The notes under the pieces: generated by a model
Databases searched by the model: none
What the model saw: the letters and a program-made list of their open reading frames with translations, nothing else
Told to the model about the DNA's origin: nothing
Part shown: positions 16,436 to 39,685 of the stretch, in pieces
Layout: each line of letters opens with the position of its first letter
How positions within the stretch are numbered: position 1 is the first letter of the stretch
Position numbers and translations under genes: made by a program
From: a virus
Length of the DNA stretch: 64,000 nucleotides
Reading direction: 5' to 3' (one strand)
IMG/VR virus record: IMGVR_UViG_3300032607_001425
Coordinates: 38,120-102,119 of that record

Positions 16436-16476
16436 TACTTAAATATACGAAAAAAGACCTGCGTAAGCAAGCCTTT
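16436..16476 (-). promoter_or_regulatory. Composite terminator hairpin and Bacteroidota-type promoter (recurs near 9212, 20595, 24900, 27118, 31590, 31803, 50685)
   Basis: Minus strand AAAAGGCTTGCTTACGCAGGTCTTTTTTCGTATATTTAAGTAT: hairpin plus U tract overlapping a -33 TTG and a -7 TAnnTTT-like element. Confidence 0.6.
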
Positions 16477-20565: not shown

Positions 20566-20638
20566 AACTTTTATTTGTTTTAAATTTCTAATAATTAAAT
20601 ATACGAAAAAAAGCTTGCCGAAGCAAGCCTTTTGCCAA

Positions 20639-29881: not shown

Positions 29882-30415
29882 TTATTTTTTATACACTATT
29901 AAATTTTCTGAATCTATGTTGAAATCTTCTTTAGGTGTAAGTTTGTTGATTAGCATTCTAGAAAATATAAATCTAGAGGTTGATATAGGTTTGATTACCA
30001 TTTTATCACTTAGTTCTTGTTGCTTAAAGAAAGGTAGTATTTCATCTCTATAAATCTTAGCCAATGTGTTTGATCTTTTATCTAAATCAATCGCAGATGA
30101 CTCTGGTGATATTGGTGGAGTTGAAGGCTCATATTGAGGTTTTCCTTGTTTATTTATCCATCCGGTTTTTAATTCAAAGTATGGATCAGATAAAGGTTGG
30201 TATGTTAATCGTACAAAGAACTTAACATTGTTTGCGTCTTTATAGTAATATAGCCCTTTACTTCCTTCATACTCATATGAATCCTCAGGATTTAATAATT
30301 CACTCAGTATTATTTCATTCTCCAAAATTAACTCATCCTCTAAAGAATACTTATTAGTTTTAAAAAATTCTTTAATTTCACTTTTAATTAATTCCTGTAA
30401 GGTTTTTACTTTCAT
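29882..30415 (-). CDS. Hypothetical protein, possible internal virion protein
   Basis: N-terminus LQELIKSEIKE...ILENEIILSE. Confidence 0.55.
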   Translation of the reverse strand: MKVKTLQELIKSEIKEFFKTNKYSLEDELILENEIILSELLNPEDSYEYEGSKGLYYYKDANNVKFFVRLTYQPLSDPYFELKTGWINKQGKPQYEPSTPPISPESSAIDLDKRSNTLAKIYRDEILPFFKQQELSDKMVIKPISTSRFIFSRMLINKLTPKEDFNIDSENLIVYKK

Positions 30416-30430
30416 AATGGATAAAATTTT

Positions 30431-30506
30431 GTGTCCTATACAGGATTCGAACCTGTGACCTTCTCGTTATGAGCGAGCTGCTCTAGCCAACTGAGCTAAA
30501 AGGACA
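30431..30506 (-). tRNA. tRNA-Met or Ile2 (CAT)
   Basis: Cloverleaf; anticodon loop CTCATAA. Confidence 0.85.
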
Positions 30507-30512
30507 TTCTAG

Positions 30513-30582
30513 TTGCGACCGGAAGATTCGAACTTCTCCTCAAGGTTATGAGCCTCGTATGCTACCTTTACACTACGTCGCG
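30513..30582 (-). tRNA. tRNA-fMet-like (CAT)
   Basis: C1:A72 mismatch; loop CTCATAA. Confidence 0.8.
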
Positions 30583-30589
30583 ATGTTAG

Positions 30590-30667
30590 CTGACTAATAA
30601 GGATTTGAACCTTACTCCCCTACCTCCTTTAGATTCAGAGGTGGTGTGCACCATTACACCATAATCA
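30590..30667 (-). tRNA. Atypical Gln-like tRNA with possible CTA (amber) anticodon
   Basis: D arm GGTGTAATGG, T arm GGTTCAAATCC; anticodon arm ACCTC-TGAATCTAAAG-GAGGT with an enlarged loop. Confidence 0.45.
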
Positions 30668-30717
30668 ATCGAGGTTTTCGAACACCTCAGTCATAGGTTA
30701 ATTACTCCTATGGTTTG

Positions 30718-30789
30718 CGGTCTATGAGGGAATCGAACCCTCGCCTCTGACGTGACAAGCCAGTACTGCTACCATTACACAAATAGACC
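30718..30789 (-). tRNA. tRNA-Asp (GTC)
   Basis: Loop TTGTCAC. Confidence 0.88.
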
Positions 30790-30865
30790 AAATTACCTGT
30801 CTGTTCCAGGTTGTCAACTACTTACCAATTAGCCTCATTGGTCAATCCTCTTATAGTCGATTTTG

Positions 30866-30937
30866 TGGAGATATAGGGAATTGAACCCTAATTTATGATT
30901 TGCAAAACCATCGTAATAGCCATTATACGATATCCCC
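30866..30937 (-). tRNA. tRNA-Ala (TGC)
   Basis: Loop TTTGCAA; G3:U70. Confidence 0.88.
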
Positions 30938-30942
30938 AATTG

Positions 30943-31014
30943 TAGCCCTGCTGGGAGTCGAACCCAACTTTTATGGATGAAAACCATATGTCCTAACCGA
31001 TAGACGACAGGGCC
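30943..31014 (-). tRNA. tRNA-Glu (TTC)
   Basis: Loop TTTTCAT. Confidence 0.88.
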
Positions 31015-31020
31015 ATTTTG

Positions 31021-31094
31021 AGCAACATGCCGGTCTCGAACCGGCCTTATTCCACATTGGAAGTGTGGTGCCATACCTACTAGGCGAATGTTGC
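31021..31094 (-). tRNA. tRNA-Gly (TCC)
   Basis: Loop CTTCCAA. Confidence 0.88.
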
Positions 31095-31186
31095 AATTTG
31101 AGGTGGAGTTCCTCAGTGTTGCTAAGTTTACTTTTACTTAGTTATAATTACTAACATAATTCCTTTCTCAAGGGAACAACACTTTG

Positions 31187-31259
31187 AGCTTCCTACCGGT
31201 CACGATCCGATAACCTCTTGTTTACAAAACAAGTGCTCTACCAATTGAGCTAAGGAAGC
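31187..31259 (-). tRNA. tRNA-Thr (TGT)
   Basis: Loop TTTGTAA; T-loop ATCGTGA. Confidence 0.85.
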
Positions 31260-31410
31260 AATTAATTAGAATGGGTGTTCAAATCCCTTCTGCAGGTAGA
31301 ACCTGATGCTTTGCTATAAGCTAATTCTAATATTTTTTGTAGGCGACCAGTACTCCGATCCTTCTGCCCATTTAAGGAACTCATATCCACTTTAAGTGGT
31401 CCTACTATCG

Positions 31411-31486
31411 TACACCTGGTGGGAGTCGAACCCACAAAATCTTCTGATCCTAAGTCAGACGGCTTTACCAGTTTACCCACAGGTGC
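31411..31486 (-). tRNA. tRNA-Leu (TAG), short variable arm
   Basis: Loop CTTAGGA. Confidence 0.83.
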
Positions 31487-31647
31487 AATTTTACCGCATG
31501 TGCGGTCACTTATCAATCGGTAGCTCCCTCTCGATATCCATCTGTGGGTGTAACACATTTGGTAGAGGGTCGACTCTTCAATGCTTTCTTATACTTAAAT
31601 ATACGAACTATATTTGTAATATCCAAGCTTTTTTAATTTATTTTTTG

Positions 31648-31719
31648 AGGGCCTCCAGAGAATCGAACTCTGAATCTCACATTTTGCAGACATGAAGCTT
31701 AACCATCAGCCTGAGGCCC
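31648..31719 (-). tRNA. tRNA-Cys (GCA)
   Basis: Loop CTGCAAA. Confidence 0.8.
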
Positions 31720-31848
31720 ATATTCACCTAGCCTGACCTTCCAGACAGTACAAGTCGAGATTAATTTGGCGCCTCGTTTTGTAGTAGGTGATTTATCTTT
31801 CTTATACTTAAATATACGACCTTTATTTGTAGTATCCAACTTTTTTTA

Positions 31849-32355
31849 CTAGAAAAATAAAAATGTTTCCCATTCTTTTGGAATGTATGTTAACTGTTTT
31901 AGAAGCATCAAATAGTGTGGCCTTTTTGGTTCTACTATCTCTTTACCATATTCCTCAAGTGTTAAATCTGCTTTTTGTGAATTACAAGTTCTACAAGCTG
32001 TTACTAAATTATCCCAAGCATTTTCTCCACCTTTTGATTGTGGAATAACGTGGTCAAGTGTTAGTGACTTTACATAATTTGATCCACAATACACACATTC
32101 ATAGTTGTCTCTTTTATAAACATTTTCTCTTGTTAGAGGAACTTTCTGAATGTTTTGTTTTACATATTTGTAAACCCTAATAATTGAAGGTTTAAAAATT
32201 TCTAGTTTTGGATTTACTAATCCGAATGTTTCTGGATGTTCAGCTATTATTTCTGCATTACCCTTATACGAAATCACGAAAGCTCTTTCTGTGGAGATAA
32301 TGCTTCTTGCCATAAAGCTTGAATCAATTACCAGTGTTCTTTGGTGCTTACTCAT
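31849..32355 (-). CDS. HNH endonuclease (McrA-like) within the tRNA array
   Basis: RENVYKRDNYECVYCG...TLDHVIPQSKGG..WDNLVTACRTCN..K. Confidence 0.92.
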   Translation of the reverse strand: MSKHQRTLVIDSSFMARSIISTERAFVISYKGNAEIIAEHPETFGLVNPKLEIFKPSIIRVYKYVKQNIQKVPLTRENVYKRDNYECVYCGSNYVKSLTLDHVIPQSKGGENAWDNLVTACRTCNSQKADLTLEEYGKEIVEPKRPHYLMLLKQLTYIPKEWETFLFF

Positions 32356-32386
32356 GATTTTAATTTTTAATGAAACAATTTACTAG

Positions 32387-32458
32387 CACGCCTGGAAGGT
32401 TACGATCCCTCGATTTTGGGTTTGGAAGCCAATGTGTTACCAATTACACTACAGACGC
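32387..32458 (-). tRNA. tRNA-Trp (CCA)
   Basis: Loop TTCCAAA; T-loop ATCGTAA. Confidence 0.75.
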
Positions 32459-32556
32459 ATTTGTAGGATATCGTTTAACCTACTGTGAATGGCCTATTCA
32501 CCTTAATACTCTAAAGTTGCATCCTAAACGGGAAACTTTGGTATACGATTTTTTTG

Positions 32557-32628
32557 AACCCCTACCTGGACTCGAACCAGGACCAAAACGTTAGAAGCGT
32601 TTTATTCTTCCGATTAAACTATAAGGGC
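32557..32628 (-). tRNA. tRNA-Arg (TCT)
   Basis: Loop CTTCTAA. Confidence 0.87.
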
Positions 32629-32788
32629 AAGTAAAATATAATTAGTAAGTTTTATCAGGAATCTGGGGTCTGATTTCTCAGTGCTTCACACACCCTTAGA
32701 GAGTTGAGTATAAATACTTGTCCTTAGTGTGTACCCTTGCGTAACGTCTCTCCACGTCTTCTTACCTACGATTTGTAATTATATTTTG

Positions 32789-32860
32789 AGGTCCTACCAG
32801 AACTCGAATCTGGATTCTATCGTTCGTAGCGATAAGTTTTTCCAATTAAACTATAAGACC
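32789..32860 (-). tRNA. tRNA-Arg (ACG)
   Basis: Loop CTACGAA. Confidence 0.85.
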
Positions 32861-32865
32861 ATTTG

Positions 32866-32944
32866 TATCCCTGACTGGAGTCGAACCAGCAAGCCTAGGC
32901 ATTTGGGCTTAAACCAAACGTGTTTACCATTTCACCACAGGGAT
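32866..32944 (-). tRNA. tRNA-Leu (TAA)
   Basis: Loop TTTAAGC; variable arm present. Confidence 0.85.
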
Positions 32945-33040
32945 GTAAAGCCAATCCCGTAGATTGGCAGCTCAACTTACGGTATTGAGTTTGAGGAAAC
33001 AAGTTCCTTACCACGTCCTTTACCCTTTGGGCACCGACAG

Positions 33041-33114
33041 TGTGAAGGGTGGGACTCGAACCCACAATCGCCTGAACCACAATCAGGTGCTTTACCAATT
33101 CAGCTACAATCACC
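33041..33114 (-). tRNA. tRNA-His (GTG)
   Basis: Loop TTGTGGT; G-1 present. Confidence 0.87.
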
Positions 33115-33121
33115 ATGTTAG

Positions 33122-33189
33122 TACCGAATACTAGTAACGATCTAGTCTAAGAGCGGATATGAGCCATTCTCGGTCCCTGACCATTCGAT
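33122..33189 (-). tRNA. Miniature atypical tRNA (CAT) with a 3-nt D loop
   Basis: ATCGAAT-GGTC AGG GACC-GA-GAATGG CTCATAT CCGCTC-TTAG-ACTAG ATCGTTA CTAGT-ATTCGGT. Confidence 0.55.
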
Positions 33190-33194
33190 AATTG

Positions 33195-33279
33195 AGGAAA
33201 GAATGAGAATCGAACTCAATCCGGTTACCCGAACATCTCGCTTAGCAGGCGGACTCAACACCATGTTGACTTACTTTCC
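33195..33279 (-). tRNA. tRNA-Ser (GCT)
   Basis: Loop CTGCTAA; long variable arm. Confidence 0.8.
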
Positions 33280-33285
33280 ATTTTG

Positions 33286-33357
33286 TACTTCTAGGAAGAA
33301 TTGAACTTCCATTTCATCCTTATCAGAGATGTGTGCTAACCATTCTACTATAGAAGC
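33286..33357 (-). tRNA. tRNA-Ile (GAT)
   Basis: Loop CTGATAA. Confidence 0.87.
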
Positions 33358-33364
33358 AGTTTTG

Positions 33365-33436
33365 CTGGCCTGGAAGGAATCGAACCTTCATAAGATGATT
33401 AACAGTCATCCGTAATAGCCGTTATACGACAAGCCA
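33365..33436 (-). tRNA. tRNA-Asn (GTT)
   Basis: Loop CTGTTAA. Confidence 0.88.
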
Positions 33437-33441
33437 ATTTG

Positions 33442-33514
33442 TGGGGATTACAGGTTACGCTCCTGTCTCTCATGGGCTTCAACCATGCGCTTTCACTAGA
33501 TTAGCTTAATCCCC
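33442..33514 (-). tRNA. tRNA-Phe (GAA)
   Basis: Loop TTGAAGC; T-loop AGCGTAA. Confidence 0.8.
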
Positions 33515-33526
33515 AATTTAATAAAG

Positions 33527-33597
33527 TGGGGCCGGTAGGAATCGAACCTACCCAGTGAGCTTTTACAGAGCTGCTCGGCACCTTGCCTGTCGTCCCC
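33527..33597 (-). tRNA. tRNA-Tyr (GTA), short variable arm
   Basis: Loop CTGTAAA. Confidence 0.72.
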
Positions 33598-33602
33598 TTT
33601 TG

Positions 33603-33673
33603 TACCTCGTGATGGTTATGCTCCACCGCCTATTGCATGTAAAACAATTACGCTTCTATTACGCCAACGAGGC
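33603..33673 (-). tRNA. tRNA-Val (TAC)
   Basis: Loop TTTACAT; T-loop AGCATAA. Confidence 0.78.
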
Positions 33674-33732
33674 AAATTTAATTCTATGCTCGCAATATGT
33701 AGCTCTATGAATTAATAACAATCTCATCTGTG

Positions 33733-33803
33733 TACCCCTCTCAGGTAATGATCCTGATTCCCGATATTAAAAGTATCGTGCTTCACCTTAAAGCTTGAAG
33801 GGC
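33733..33803 (-). tRNA. tRNA-Lys (TTT)
   Basis: Loop CTTTTAA; T-loop ATCATTA. Confidence 0.8.
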
Positions 33804-33809
33804 AGTTTG

Positions 33810-33882
33810 TCTAAGTGGGAGGGCTCAAACCTCCGGCCTCATGCTCCCAAAGCATGCCATCTACCAACTGATCTACACCTAG
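33810..33882 (-). tRNA. tRNA-Pro (TGG)
   Basis: Loop TTTGGGA. Confidence 0.87.
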
Positions 33883-33896
33883 AAATCTAATTTTTG

Positions 33897-33968
33897 TTAC
33901 CCCTAATGGAATCGAACCACTACCGCATGGACCAAAACCATGTGTACTAACCGTTATACGAAGGGGCA
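33897..33968 (-). tRNA. tRNA-Gln (TTG)
   Basis: Loop TTTTGGT; U1:A72. Confidence 0.88.
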
Positions 33969-33973
33969 AATTG

Positions 33974-34633
33974 TTACTTTATTTTTCTTCCTAATCTCCA
34001 TCCTTCCGGAATTAGATCTCCTTTGTATATTTTTTTATTTTCAACTTCATCTGTTATCCAACAAGTCCCGTATTGGGAATTATTAATTCCTTTTCCTAAA
34101 TCTCTTTCTTTTCTAGTATTTCTTATTTTTTGAAGAGTTTCAGGTTTATGTTTCTTGCCTTTCCAGGAATAGCATTCTGATATGTTGTTAAATTTCACTC
34201 CTCTTTCTTTTGCCTTTTTCTGACCTTTCCTAATTGCTTTGCAGTATTTTTCTCTAAATTCAGGATCTGTCTGTAAAAGTAGTGCTTTTGCTATATTTGC
34301 TGCTGCTCTTCCCTTTATTTTATTTTCTTCTGTGAAGCCTCCTGAACTTCCTTGTTTTAAATTTAAACAGTTTGAATTTTTTAAATCCTGTTCTGTTATT
34401 AAATTAATCTCAGCTTGAACTAATTCTTCTCTTGATTGAAATTGCTCCAGTATTTCTAAGTTAAAACTGTCTCTACCATACTTATTTAATTCGTAATACA
34501 ATCTTTTACCACTTCCCAAGTAACCGTCATCTATACGGTTAGTTGAATGCATTCCCAGGTAGTACCTGTTGTTTATAAGATTTGTAGTCCTATAGGTGAA
34601 ATGATACCTTTTATTCTCTTTGATGTTAGCCAT
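33974..34633 (-). CDS. SegB-like GIY-YIG endonuclease in the tRNA array
   Basis: FTYRTTNLINNRYYLGMHST...YLGSG...KYG; C-terminal GTCWITD...IPEGWRLGR. Confidence 0.88.
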   Translation of the reverse strand: MANIKENKRYHFTYRTTNLINNRYYLGMHSTNRIDDGYLGSGKRLYYELNKYGRDSFNLEILEQFQSREELVQAEINLITEQDLKNSNCLNLKQGSSGGFTEENKIKGRAAANIAKALLLQTDPEFREKYCKAIRKGQKKAKERGVKFNNISECYSWKGKKHKPETLQKIRNTRKERDLGKGINNSQYGTCWITDEVENKKIYKGDLIPEGWRLGRKIK

Positions 34634-34676
34634 ATCTATTGTTTATTATAAATAGGCTAACTTTTCAAAAAGTCTA

Positions 34677-34763
34677 CAGAAGAAGGCGTGAGACTCGAAC
34701 TCACAACGGTTTAACCCGCTACCACTTTTCAAGAGTGGCTCTTGATCCAGCCAGATCTTCTCC
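34677..34763 (-). tRNA. tRNA-Ser (TGA)
   Basis: Loop CTTGAAA; long variable arm. Confidence 0.8.
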
Positions 34764-34774
34764 ATTTAATTTTA

Positions 34775-34846
34775 TCCAATACGTCAATGAACTTTTGTTC
34801 TTTATTACTTTGTAAAGATACTACCTTTTTTCGTTTGTAGCAACTT
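34775..34846 (-). promoter_or_regulatory. Host-type promoter followed by a boxA-like element at the head of the tRNA array
   Basis: Minus strand GTTGCTACAAACGAAAAAAGGTAGTATCTTTACA, then AAAGTTCATTGACG. Confidence 0.5.
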
Positions 34847-34862
34847 TTTTTTAATTTATTTT

Positions 34863-34899
34863 AAAAAAAAACCCGAATCTTTTTTTTTGATCCGGGTTT
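34863..34899 (-). terminator. Intrinsic terminator of a putative attenuator
   Basis: AAACCCGGATC-A-run-GATTCGGGTTT followed by a U run. Confidence 0.8.
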
Positions 34900-34931
34900 C
34901 TTATTAGAAGTTATATGTATAATTTCTTATA

Positions 34932-35066
34932 TCATATCCCGGTTTTTGTTGTTTTCGGTTCGTTATTATACGTAAAGCCAAACACAATATCACTCCATAA
35001 CGAACTCGCTGACATTGTCAGTGCTCTCGATGGTTGATGTTGTTGTATGTTTTGTTGTGCTTTCAT
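34932..35066 (-). CDS. Putative 44-aa attenuator leader peptide (not in ORF track)
   Basis: MKAQQNIQQHQPSRALTMSASSLWSDIVFGFTYNNEPKTTKTGI*; its last codons overlap the antiterminator strand CCGGG. Confidence 0.65.
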   Translation of the reverse strand: MKAQQNIQQHQPSRALTMSASSLWSDIVFGFTYNNEPKTTKTGI

Positions 35067-35158
35067 TTTACTTTTGTTCTATATATAAATATACGCCTTT
35101 TTTGTTTCCGTTGCAACTATTTGTTGATTTATTTTTAAGATACCGTTCTTTTATTAAT

Positions 35159-35440
35159 TTATCCTTTTATTACTTGTTTTTCTTTTGTTATTCTTGTTTC
35201 GAACTTATCAAATCTGGAGTCTATAAATGAATATACATCTCCTACTAATCTGTCTGTTCTGTCAATTTCTTGATCAACTCTTCGGTTAATCATTTGTTCG
35301 TTATTGTTTATAACGATTTCAATGTCTGTTACTTGTTTTTCTAACTGTTCTACTTTTTTTGTTGTCTTAAACGCTGACACAACTACCAATATAAAGGTAC
35401 CTATACCTAGACCTAAAACGAATGCTAAAATTTGTTCCAT
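35159..35440 (-). CDS. Membrane-anchored coiled-coil protein flanked by ~19-bp inverted repeats
   Basis: MEQILAFVLGLGIG... transmembrane helix plus coiled coil. Confidence 0.65.
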   Translation of the reverse strand: MEQILAFVLGLGIGTFILVVVSAFKTTKKVEQLEKQVTDIEIVINNNEQMINRRVDQEIDRTDRLVGDVYSFIDSRFDKFETRITKEKQVIKG

Positions 35441-35483
35441 AGTTTTTGTTTTTAAATTCAAAGAACGGTAATCTTAAAATTTG

Positions 35484-35561
35484 TAGTCAGGGAGGACTCG
35501 AACCTTATAGCGACCTATATTTCAAGGGTTCGGCAACCTCGCCTCATTACGCCACCTGACT
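35484..35561 (-). ncRNA. tRNA-like element with a non-canonical anticodon arm
   Basis: Acceptor AGTCAGG/CCTGACT, TGGCGTAAT D start, GGTTCGAGTCC T arm. Confidence 0.5.
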
Positions 35562-35822
35562 TCCTTACCAACCTTGGTCTTTCTTGTAGCCTTCCGAGTT
35601 ATCAGTTACGGGGCTTGTACAAGAGCAGGGTTTCTGATTGAGTGCAATAAGTGACGCCTTCCTACTATAAACCCTTGTTCGGAAATTAATACACTCTACT
35701 TCTCAATTAACAGCGAGCATTGGTAATTTTTAATAAAACATTCCAGCCACATTGGGAGAGCCGCAGTTCCCACGTTGTTTAAAGACTTTCTTGGCGGACC
35801 TATCTACTGGGGTAGTTTTATT

Positions 35823-35987
35823 TTACAGTGTACATTCTGTAGTGTCTACCGCTGTGATATCTACACTTACTGAATCAACTTGTACTTTTGTTGAATCTAC
35901 TGTTGTTAGTCTTGCTGGTGCTTCAACTTTTTTACAACTTACTGCCACTAAAGCCATTACGGCTAATATTAAAAATACTTTTTTCAT
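35823..35987 (-). CDS. Small lipoprotein (54 aa, not in ORF track)
   Basis: MKKVFLILAVMALVAVSCKK lipobox, then VDS/T repeats typical of Bacteroidota lipoproteins. Confidence 0.75.
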   Translation of the reverse strand: MKKVFLILAVMALVAVSCKKVEAPARLTTVDSTKVQVDSVSVDITAVDTTECTL

Positions 35988-36004
35988 TTTTGTTTTACTG
36001 TTTA

Positions 36005-36358
36005 TTATGTTTGTGTGTTAGTCCACCTATTTACTACTACTTTAGCTTTGAAGTATTCGTCTAAAAAAACTTTTCTATAGACCATAACTTTTCCTTTATA
36101 CAACTTAGTTTCTATTATTCTAGTTTGTACTTCCTCCCTAGTTCGTCTAGCAACTTCATAGACATCTGCTCCTAACCGTGCTCCAGCTGGATACCCTAAA
36201 TAATCAAATAAAGATACTGTTGGCTCTTCTTTTACTTCTTTTTGGTATATTTTAATTGGAGTTTCGTCAATACTATCAATTAATTTAATTACATCTTTTT
36301 TGCTAAAAATTGAACTTGGTGAAGTTACTACTTCATTCAATACCAATTTCTTTTCCAT
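36005..36358 (-). CDS. Hypothetical protein
   Basis: ORF with SLFDYLG..AG..LG motif. Confidence 0.65.
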   Translation of the reverse strand: MEKKLVLNEVVTSPSSIFSKKDVIKLIDSIDETPIKIYQKEVKEEPTVSLFDYLGYPAGARLGADVYEVARRTREEVQTRIIETKLYKGKVMVYRKVFLDEYFKAKVVVNRWTNTQT

Positions 36359-36486
36359 AATGATTTTATTTTACATTTAATATACGCAAAATATCCTGCA
36401 AATGCAACTATTGTAGCAGAAATATTTAATAAATGTGGATGATTTTCTCCGCATGCCCCACAAACGTGGCTGATTACTTCTCCCAT
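36337..36486 (-). CDS. Small membrane protein with HxCGxCGExHPH motif (49 aa, not in ORF track)
   Basis: MGEVISHVCGACGENHPHLLNISATIVAFAGYFAYIKCKIKSLWKRNWY. Confidence 0.55.
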   Translation of the reverse strand: MGEVISHVCGACGENHPHLLNISATIVAFAGYFAYIKCKIKSLWKRNWY

Positions 36487-36488
36487 GC

Positions 36489-36797
36489 TTAGTCGATTGT
36501 AGTCATTGTGTTCATCTTATTTTGTATATCATTCCAACTACCTATGTATTCTTGAATTGATTTGTAGTGGCTGTTGCCTGTAGTATGTAATAATTCTCTT
36601 GATACAACTTTAAGTGCATGATTGAATGTGGCTGGGTAGCATATTGTTTTAAAATAAGCTCTGTCTGTTTGTCCTCTAGTAACTCTTTCGAATACTGTGT
36701 ATCCTCCTGTTGTTGATTTTACGATGAAGAAAGGTTCCATGATTGGATCTTCAATAAGTGTGTCCCCTTCTGGGATAGTATTTGGATTACGTAACAT
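36489..36797 (-). CDS. Hypothetical protein
   Basis: ORF. Confidence 0.65.
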   Translation of the reverse strand: MLRNPNTIPEGDTLIEDPIMEPFFIVKSTTGGYTVFERVTRGQTDRAYFKTICYPATFNHALKVVSRELLHTTGNSHYKSIQEYIGSWNDIQNKMNTMTTID

Positions 36798-37975: not shown

Positions 37976-39685
37976 CTATCCGTCGCATGCACCACAATCG
38001 GTACTAACCCTACTTCCCAAATCCCCATTAATTACCGAATCAGTCCTTAAGTAATACAGTGTTTTTAGTCCCAATTTCCAGGCTGTCTGGTGAACAAGGT
38101 TTATAAACTTAGGACTATCTCCTGGATCGAATGCTAGATTTAGGGACTGTGCTTGGTCTATGTACTTACCTCGAACTGCAGCTTGCTCCACTAGGTTTAG
38201 CATATTAATCTCAGCAAATGTTAAGAAAACTTCTTTATCCTCAAATGGCATAATGTCTTCTGGTAAGTTTGCAATTGATCCTCTATCTTTGAGAATTTGT
38301 TGCCATACTTCTTCTGTATTATGTCCTTTGTCTTCTAAATACTTTTCTAATACTGGATTCTTTCTAATGAAAGTTCCTTTTGAAGAATTAAAAGTATACA
38401 CGTTTGCTGGAATTGGTTCAATACCTGCTGATACTCCACCTGAGATTGTTGAATTAGAAACTGTAGGAGCAATTGCAATTAAATGCGTATTTCTCATTCC
38501 TGTTCCCTTACACCAAACTGGTTCTCCGTATTCCTCTGCTAGTTTTCTTGAAGCTGCTTCAGCTTGTGTTTTAATTTGAGAGAAGATTCTATTTGTCCAA
38601 GAAGTTGATGCAATTGAATTAAATGGTAATCCTTTTGCTTGTAGGAATGAGTGCCATCCTAAAACTCCTAATCCTAATGCTCTTCCTTTTTTAGCAGAAC
38701 GGTGAGATCTAATCATAGAATCTTTTCCGTTTGTCTTAATTAAGAATTCCTCTAATACCCCATCTAGGAAGTATATTGCTGTCTCAACTAAGTCAGTATC
38801 TTTCCACTCTTCGTATCTTGTAATGTTTAGAGAAGATAAACAGCAAACAAATGAATGCTCTTCATCAGTATGTAATGCAATCTCTGAGCAGATATTGGTC
38901 ATTGTTACATCCAAGTTATTCTTAACATATGCAGCAGGATTTGCGTTGTTTACATTGTCTTTAAACATGATATACGGTTCTCCTGTCTCTACTCTTGATT
39001 TGAGAATTTCAACCCATAGTTCCATTGCTTCTGGATCTCTATGCTCCAATCTTTGCATGAATTTATCGTCAATGGAAATACATTGGTGTAAGTTTAAACA
39101 TTGACGGTTTGCATCTCCTTGAGGTCTTCTAATACGTAAAAATTCTTTTATATCAACATGGTTAATATCTAAATTTACAGAAGCTGCTCCTCTACGAACT
39201 GATCCTTGATTTGTAGCAATGATAGTTGAATCAAATATTTTAGCCCAAGGCACAATACCTTCTGACTGTCCTGTCTCTCCATTTCCTATCTTTACTCCTC
39301 TTCCTCTTACTCTTCCAAGTCCAATTCCAACTCCACCTCCTAAAGAAGTAAGTCTCATTAGTTCTGCATTGGTTAATCCTATACCTCTAATTGAATCAGG
39401 AGTATCTATACCAAAACATGAGATTGGCAATCCTTTGTCTGTTCCCGTGTTTGATAGTACTGGTGAGGCTAAATTTAACCAACCTTTCCACATATACTTG
39501 AAAAACTTATTTGCTAGATCAGGACGATCTAATCTTTTGGCTACTGCATCAGCAACTCTTCTATATGCTTTCTTTGGATTCTCATCAGGTAACAAATACC
39601 CGTTTGAAACTGTAGCCAAAGATACCTCATTCATCCATTCCGGATAATCTACGCCTGGTTTCCAGGCACTGTAATCTATATTCAT
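37976..39685 (-). CDS. nrdA: Ribonucleotide reductase class I alpha subunit
   Basis: LASPVLSN, ISCF, TNICSEI, IAPTVS, IDQAQSLN, LKTLYY, C-terminal CGACDG. Confidence 0.96.
   Translation of the reverse strand: MNIDYSAWKPGVDYPEWMNEVSLATVSNGYLLPDENPKKAYRRVADAVAKRLDRPDLANKFFKYMWKGWLNLASPVLSNTGTDKGLPISCFGIDTPDSIRGIGLTNAELMRLTSLGGGVGIGLGRVRGRGVKIGNGETGQSEGIVPWAKIFDSTIIATNQGSVRRGAASVNLDINHVDIKEFLRIRRPQGDANRQCLNLHQCISIDDKFMQRLEHRDPEAMELWVEILKSRVETGEPYIMFKDNVNNANPAAYVKNNLDVTMTNICSEIALHTDEEHSFVCCLSSLNITRYEEWKDTDLVETAIYFLDGVLEEFLIKTNGKDSMIRSHRSAKKGRALGLGVLGWHSFLQAKGLPFNSIASTSWTNRIFSQIKTQAEAASRKLAEEYGEPVWCKGTGMRNTHLIAIAPTVSNSTISGGVSAGIEPIPANVYTFNSSKGTFIRKNPVLEKYLEDKGHNTEEVWQQILKDRGSIANLPEDIMPFEDKEVFLTFAEINMLNLVEQAAVRGKYIDQAQSLNLAFDPGDSPKFINLVHQTAWKLGLKTLYYLRTDSVINGDLGSRVSTDCGACDG

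Follow-up and report, generated by a model that had tools for sequence, protein, structure and literature searches.

The present study analyzes the head of a transfer RNA (tRNA) gene array in a 64,000-nucleotide stretch of viral DNA (the window, positions 38,120 to 102,119 of the 102-kb IMG/VR virus record IMGVR_UViG_3300032607_001425, 34% G+C), where a 44-codon open reading frame (ORF) and an intrinsic terminator precede the first tRNA gene. Nearly all genes of the window, and all features described below with window coordinates, are on its minus strand. The module formed by the ORF and the terminator is probably, judged from sequence comparison, a ribosome-mediated transcription attenuator that senses general translation or decoding capacity, a reading put forward in a first-pass annotation of this DNA and supported here by recurrence of the module at 86 loci and by compensatory changes in its pairing. 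What was observed directly is the anatomy and conservation of the module, covariation in each of the two alternative helices and maintenance of the reading frame. A bolder form of the idea, namely that the module is a universal decoding-capacity gauge, a test track of 37–45 codons in which evolution maintains the full set of 20 amino acids together with slow NCG codons and whose crossing speed would set read-through, is held more tentatively, as a possibility falling a little short of probable.

A leader ORF, a terminator and two exclusive helices

The leader ORF (35066-34932) begins about 20 nucleotides (nt) downstream of a promoter-like site, P1 (35116-35087; TTGC, 19 nt, TATATTT; activity predicted only), and consists of a body of codons 1-38 (35066-34953, M...GFTYNNEPK), the proposed sensing track, and a tail of six codons plus the TGA stop (34952-34932), which holds the antiterminator strand, seg1 (CCGGG, 34942-34938). 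Beyond seg1 is hairpin H (34937-34913, ATATG.TATAA/TTATA.CATAT), with the TGA stop in its 5′ arm, and then the terminator (34899-34863), whose 11-bp stem (34899-34889 paired to 34879-34869) is closed by a nine-A loop and followed by nine T to 34863. Within the 5′ arm of the terminator is seg2 (CCCGG, 34896-34892), the complement of seg1, and H stacks directly on the seg1:seg2 helix. An intrinsic terminator thus stands between the leader ORF and the tRNA genes, and the antiterminator helix excludes the terminator and can itself be masked by a ribosome on the leader. A further small hairpin of the antiterminated fold, TTCT/AGAA (34909-34898), overlaps the terminator base and is weak, with 84% of cells paired and little covariation. 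The coordinates of the ORF, CCGGG, CCCGG, terminator, P1 and a second promoter-like site, P2, were correct in the first-pass annotation; the inner hairpin that it drew, AGAAATTATA/TATAACTTCT, leaves a 2-nt loop and is not a conserved helix, and it is H that folds and is conserved instead.

The first-pass annotation had proposed looking in relatives for a codon-diverse ORF with an antiterminator and terminator ahead of tRNA arrays, and such modules were found at 86 loci. The leader peptide has 24 database homologues (56-88% identical, E values down to 1.6e-15), and an alignment-based scan found the 86 loci with the ORF (41 viral and 45 metagenome), representing 70 distinct variants of the ORF plus downstream region. 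At every locus with sufficient flank the ORF lies 110-870 nt 5′ of tRNA-Ser(tga) or of the first tRNA of the array, and Ser(tga) is the first tRNA after the module in most relatives. The entire module is kept in relatives, with a TATATTTATA-type promoter at the position of P1, the ORF, its TGA, hairpin H, the terminator, P2 and a conserved box.

Under the proposed mechanism, transcription would start at P1 and cross the short translated ORF, in the last six codons of which seg1, stacked on H, could pair with seg2. Were a ribosome on the tail or stop as the polymerase makes the terminator, seg1 and H would be covered, the terminator would form and the transcript would end near 34863; were the ribosome delayed within codons 1-38, or absent, seg1:seg2 would form first and transcription would read through P2 and the box into tRNA-Ser and the array. 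The likely signal would be overall decoding capacity and not a single amino acid, because the body carries all 20 amino acids in most family members (19 in this copy) and rare NCG codons. We infer translation in vivo, and likewise which way and how strongly the module responds and its physiological trigger, for which anticodon nucleases or starvation would be candidates. Given the usual ribosome footprint, occupancy of the tail or stop covers seg1 and melts H, and seg1 stays free when the ribosome is no further along than codon 38. Codon 38 starts 13 nt 5′ of seg1, and the distance from the end of seg1 to the stop is 3 nt here, 3 nt or less in most variants and never above 7 nt, except for four variants folded onto an upstream GAACCG. 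With this footprint geometry and the position of codon 38, the boundary between a peptide-like body and an RNA-constrained tail would also be the boundary between sensing and masking. It is conjecture, by analogy with the trp 1:2 hairpin, that H might pause RNA polymerase until the ribosome arrives.

The other check that had been proposed was whether the ORF tail keeps its pairing with the 5′ arm of the terminator in relatives, and it does so via compensatory changes. Seg1, seg2 and the terminator 3′ arm (seg3) change in concert, giving matched seg1/seg2/seg3 sets such as CCGGG/CCCGG/CGGG, CCGAG/CUCGG/CGAG, CCGGA/UCCGG/CGGA, UCGGG/CCCGA/UCGGG and GAUUUGGG/CCCAAAUC/GAUUUGGG, or in DNA letters the natural sets CCGAG/CTCGG/CGAG and GATTTGGG/CCCAAATC/GATTTGGG; seg1 and seg2 are also matched as GAUCUGGG/CCCGGAUC and GGUACC/GGUACC, and G-U intermediates are present. 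In a MAFFT alignment of 64 sequences that was unfitted to any structure, 88.8% of cells were paired in the seg1:seg2 helix, with changes on both sides in four of five pairs, and 97.6% in the terminator, with compensatory changes in 5 of 11 pairs. The antiterminated fold as a whole was 81% paired, as opposed to 14-53% when partners were slid. Folding predicts hairpin H both here and in nearly all relatives, with its outer five pairs standard in approximately 77-98% of sequences and pair 31/60 varying among AU, GU and GC. Cognate seg1-seg2 duplexes had a mean energy of −10.04 kcal/mol compared with −8.83 ± 0.2 for permuted partners, and none of 20000 permutations reached the observed value.

In the minimum-energy fold of RNA cut before the 3′ arm, seg1 and seg2 paired around H (p 0.98-0.99 for the window); with the same truncation, 5-8 bases of the 5′ arm paired with the ORF tail in nearly all relatives. 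In full-length RNA the terminator fold (−13.9 to −17.2 kcal/mol, varying with the flank length folded) was more stable, as in other attenuators, and the decision between terminator and antiterminator would therefore be kinetic. The duplex of ORF tail and terminator 5′ arm, approximately −10.4 kcal/mol here, compares with −2.6 ± 1.0 kcal/mol (range −0.2 to −4.0) for nine other gene-terminator pairs of the same genome, in which 6-33 nt, free of any hairpin, separate the stop from the terminator. It is the duplex energy that discriminates; a count of 5′-arm bases paired to the ORF tail (p > 0.5) does not, as three of the nine ordinary terminators reach five.

Coding status and amino acid content of the leader

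The ORF appears to be translated. Its reading frame is open in all 66 distinct DNA variants, its ATG is invariant, and indels in the body (at least eight events) are in every case a multiple of three in length, all of which argues for translation. A reading of the body as structured non-coding RNA was rejected, since RNAalifold found no conserved fold in it (−2.7 kcal/mol, 6 pairs, zero covariation). The ratio of nonsynonymous to synonymous substitution rates (dN/dS) of the body is 0.56, indicating weak amino-acid constraint; its variability is flat over codon positions (0.15, 0.13 and 0.17), many of its codons are near-invariant at the nucleotide level, and the block GFxYNNEPK is invariant or nearly so among homologues and the 66 DNA variants. 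The peptide had no match in Pfam or PHROGs. Metatranscriptome runs contained short contigs of relatives only, with one spanning the ORF (35093-34928) and one bridging ORF, terminator, P2 and box (34768-35065), and these were excluded as evidence because DNA carry-over is possible and contig ends differ from RNA ends.

After codon 38 the pattern is different. There dN/dS is 1.61, the peptides end variously in TKTGI, GGTEV, TDLG, NTFGMI or NHIWE, and ATTTGGG is translated in three frames (L101, L125 and L156 among the related loci) with the stop remaining within hairpin H, so that it is translating up to the tail that is conserved and not the C-terminal peptide. The tail has six codons in 77 of 83 peptides and is constrained as RNA and not as peptide.

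The idea of a pan-amino-acid leader, which had been raised from this copy, proved marginal for it, as 6% of the 44-codon windows of the phage's own genes likewise hold 19 of the 20 amino acids; the idea does hold for the family, in which 62 of 83 distinct peptides have all 20, 18 have 19 and three have 18. The sequences are related and the all-20 figures are therefore not formal probabilities, but all 20 are located before the tail in 62 of 81 distinct bodies (this copy having 19, with no Cys), only 0.36% of 40-residue stretches of this phage's proteins reach 20, and column shuffling yielded 34.6 ± 2.7 complete sequences versus 56 observed (0 of 5000 shuffles), so that loss in one column tends to be compensated in another. 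The property is retained across variants differing at up to about half of positions. Of the codons that had been singled out as unusual, those of the NCG type are truly rare and enriched, with five in the ORF compared with a mean of 0.39 per 43-codon window of phage genes and none of 2095 such windows reaching five, an enrichment of approximately 12-fold that is conserved across the family; AGA and ATA, on the other hand, are the preferred Arg and Ile codons of this phage. A codon adaptation index-type measure relative to the phage's own genes was 0.55 for the ORF versus 0.71 ± 0.07. Cognate codon runs of the trpL or hisL type, matching the product of the genes controlled, are absent from the leader ORF.

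Evidence against an attenuator and alternative explanations

Several observations weigh against an attenuator that gauges decoding capacity, or limit what it could achieve. P2 (34843-34814; TTGC, 19 nt, TATCTTT; activity predicted only) lies between the terminator and tRNA-Ser, and a promoter-like site at this position 3′ of the terminator is conserved in nearly all relatives, with at least two further promoter motifs within the array. The caution about P2 in the first-pass annotation was therefore justified: the tRNAs would be independent of read-through, which would add to transcription and would not be an on-switch, and the gain from it may be modest. In favour of the model, P2 is missing in two relatives, L108 (3144-3373), where the terminator 3′ arm and P2 are both lost, and L123 (3147-3260), where the terminator is kept and P2 is gone, so that in these the head of the array is reachable only from P1. 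In the geometry described, zero translation likewise yields read-through, and the model relies on a close coupling of transcription and translation that the presumed Bacteroidota host may lack. The near-invariance of GFxYNNEPK and of many codons as nucleotides, with flat variability over codon positions, is also problematic, as nothing in a pure "any codon" sensor calls for an invariant GFxYNNEPK; this conservation could have its source in a peptide that acts in trans or causes a specific arrest, in selection for certain codons or in homogenisation by nearby homing endonucleases, and gene conversion by such endonucleases might explain the high nucleotide conservation of the whole region from leader to tRNA-Ser. 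Leader codons match anticodons of the array at 95% here and at a family mean of 87%, versus 86 ± 6% for ordinary phage genes, and a leader whose codons mirror the array was rejected, the match being no better than genome-wide codon usage. Lastly, the arrays of more distant relatives begin without the leader module. For the 100-amino-acid gene directly upstream of the module, relatives occur in 100 viral contigs (E ≤ 1e-3); the leader ORF was present in none of 80 more distant relatives examined by way of this gene, approximately 25 of which begin their tRNA array 27-126 nt after the gene with no module between. Because these 80 lack the leader ORF, the module is specific to a subclade.

Alternative explanations have to account for the same switch. 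One would retain the RNA switch and make of the leader a programmed arrest peptide, with GFxYNNEPK stalling the ribosome before the tail on one signal, such as a small molecule, a factor, or tRNA for Asn, Tyr or Lys. This would fit the near-invariance of the block in 66 DNA variants despite synonymous changes (CCG/CCA/CCT, AAC/AAT), which indicates amino-acid constraint, and its end exactly at codon 38, the last stall position that should leave seg1 free, but the spacing from W to P is varied by indels, the peptide is without a match in Pfam and PHROGs, and all-20 coverage with compensation between columns would be unaccounted for; such a peptide seems to us unlikely. Another possibility is that the ORF is an ordinary small phage gene for a trans-acting peptide in a promoter-terminator cassette of its own, with pairing that ties termination to translation and with no role in tRNA supply. 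Cassettes of promoter, gene, terminator and promoter are the general layout of this genome, the array is independent of P1 owing to P2, peptide motifs are conserved, and the fixed position could be explained by conserved gene order in related phages. Such a gene would nevertheless have a body with dN/dS of 0.56 and flat variability over codon positions, a tail constrained as RNA only and used in three frames, and no Pfam or PHROGs family, and all-20 coverage in 37-45 residues is unexpected for a folded small protein; moreover, complementarity of this kind was seen in none of the nine other gene-terminator pairs examined, and L108 and L123 have no P2. An ordinary small gene is thus quite improbable in our estimation.

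It could also be that the terminated leader transcript of approximately 215 nt is itself the product, as a small or dual-function RNA similar to rnTrpL of Sinorhizobium, with incidental linkage to the tRNA genes. Small RNAs derived from attenuators are known, rnTrpL being described as one (PMC6614838), and the leader is a unit with a promoter of its own and a strong terminator that is very highly conserved at the nucleotide level. This explanation appears very improbable, given an ORF body with no conserved secondary structure, a frame that is maintained with all indels in frame, the lack of an Rfam match, and the competition of seg1 with the terminator, which would be left unaccounted for.

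Genomic setting, known systems and significance

The order of features on the minus strand is the 100-amino-acid gene, P1, the 44-codon ORF, the hairpin and terminator, P2, the box, tRNA-Ser(UGA), a GIY-YIG gene and then the other tRNAs. The 100-amino-acid gene (35461-35159) encodes a hydrophobic N-terminal stretch and, after it, a coiled-coil-like region, and it matches holins and DUF7365 weakly. P1 and P2 both match TTGC-N19-TAnnTTT, and a related motif, TTG[GC]...CGTATATTTA, precedes at least 10 other coding-strand genes and is found at two sites inside the array (~31818 and ~31605); we take this recurrent motif to resemble the Bacteroidota −33/−7 promoter type. Terminator-promoter cassettes between genes also recur, at 16441-16470, 20597-20626 and other places, with a −33 TTGC that belongs to the preceding terminator hairpin (GGCTTGC...GCAAGC), followed by a T-run and CGTATATTTA. 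The host lineage appears to be of Bacteroidota type. The only relative in GenBank is Flavobacterium phage immuto, a distant one that matches at 71% across 280 nt of a single gene; at the same place it has an unrelated 51-codon ORF and then a hairpin with no T-run, and this was rejected as a different device. Neither the leader peptide nor the leader DNA was found in any record of the GenBank phage collection, and the sequencing runs in which the stretch occurs are mostly of freshwater metagenomes.

Directly 5′ of tRNA-Ser is the conserved box of approximately 30 nt (34793-34764, AAGTTCATTGACGTATTGGATAAAATTAAAT), which at the same position in the related loci L083-L168 reads AAGTTCATTGAC[G/A]TATTGGATAAAATTAA and is near-invariant regardless of the sequence preceding it; it may serve as a signal for tRNA processing or be the target of a homing endonuclease. 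The first gene of the array, tRNA-Ser(UGA) (34761-34679), was called by ARAGORN with the anticodon at position 31, and the Rfam tRNA model is silent on it at E ≤ 1, implying an atypical D-arm region. Between it and the rest of the array is the GIY-YIG homing endonuclease gene (34633-33974), followed by approximately 25 further tRNA genes (33968-30431), which together with tRNA-Ser cover all 20 amino acids. At 30589-30667 within the array is a 79-nt tRNA-like gene, "Phe (aaa)" in ARAGORN, with an enlarged anticodon loop. Longer gaps between ORF and tRNA in relatives are filled by a homing endonuclease gene or by a tRNA-like element of approximately 120 nt. GIY-YIG genes are inserted at differing points of the module among phages, at 34633-33974 in the window and between P2 and the box in L086 and L091. 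The tRNA-like element, which the window does not have, lies between P2 and the box in L095 (3277-3395), where it has two GGTTCGA T-arm-like hairpins, and is also present in L089, L090, L100, L102, L108, L110, L111, L116 and L118; ARAGORN made no call on it, and an Rfam match to transfer-messenger RNA was at the model ends only (16.5 bits, E 1.7e-4, below the gathering score).

The attenuator proposed here has several known counterparts. Attenuators of amino-acid operons (trpL, hisL, leuL, pheL, thrL, ilvL) combine a translated leader with a terminator and an exclusive antiterminator, and the position of the ribosome decides between them. The phage module shares with these the leader ORF, the intrinsic terminator, the exclusive antiterminator and the ribosome-position decision. 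Classical leaders, however, have cognate codon runs and four segments, in which 1:2 serves as pause and as anti-antiterminator, so that in the absence of translation they terminate, whereas the phage module has three segments plus hairpin H, its antiterminator strand inside the last codons, no codon runs and read-through as the default. T-boxes bind uncharged tRNA directly, independently of translation, and control synthetase or amino-acid genes; what they have in common with the phage module is a choice between terminator and antiterminator that serves as a readout of the tRNA pool. A scan of 30000-36500 with Rfam returned no T-box or other cis-regulatory family at E ≤ 1, only tRNAs and sub-threshold matches with no leader family among them, the leader itself having only a sub-threshold match to NsiR1 on the terminator.

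The closest system in logic, and the likeness is claimed in logic only, is the whiB7 (wblC) attenuator of mycobacteria and other Actinobacteria, a short upstream open reading frame (uORF) followed by a Rho-independent terminator (PMC10274678), where again the translation efficiency of a short ORF decides termination. Efficient translation of this uORF leads to termination, and shortages of many different amino acids, depletion of tRNA or synthetase, and ribosome inhibitors lead to the antiterminator and read-through, making it a general sensor of translation stress with a specificity set by uORF composition (PMC10274678). The whiB7 uORF is enriched in alanine, varies among species and controls a transcription factor (PMC10274678), whereas the phage leader has all 20 amino acids and an invariant C-proximal motif, is phage-borne and sits before tRNA genes, so that its output would directly replenish what is sensed. 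The trn operon of Anabaena sp. PCC 7120, an array of over 20 tRNA genes that has spread horizontally, is reported to be induced when translation is impaired (PMC8421152, PMC10272220). It is a cellular system controlled by a repressor protein, TrcR, at the promoter (PMC8421152, PMC10272220), in contrast to the leader ORF and terminator switch of the phage module. No description of a leader-ORF attenuator ahead of tRNA genes came up in full-text searches of the published literature.

Phage tRNA arrays are discussed as codon adaptation and as a counter to host tRNA degradation and anticodon nucleases, and to our knowledge the control of their expression is essentially unknown. The approximately 70 natural variants of the module, among them compensatory sets, frame-shifted tails and two with no P2, make the attenuator model directly testable with reporters. 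If it is true, attenuation, familiar from amino-acid, synthetase and stress-regulator genes, would also operate on tRNA genes, and in a design sampling the full set of 20 amino acids. The phage would then measure translation itself and adjust its tRNA output, and the gauge would close a feedback loop that restores tRNA supply when the host pool is depleted, be it through degradation during infection, anticodon nucleases or starvation.

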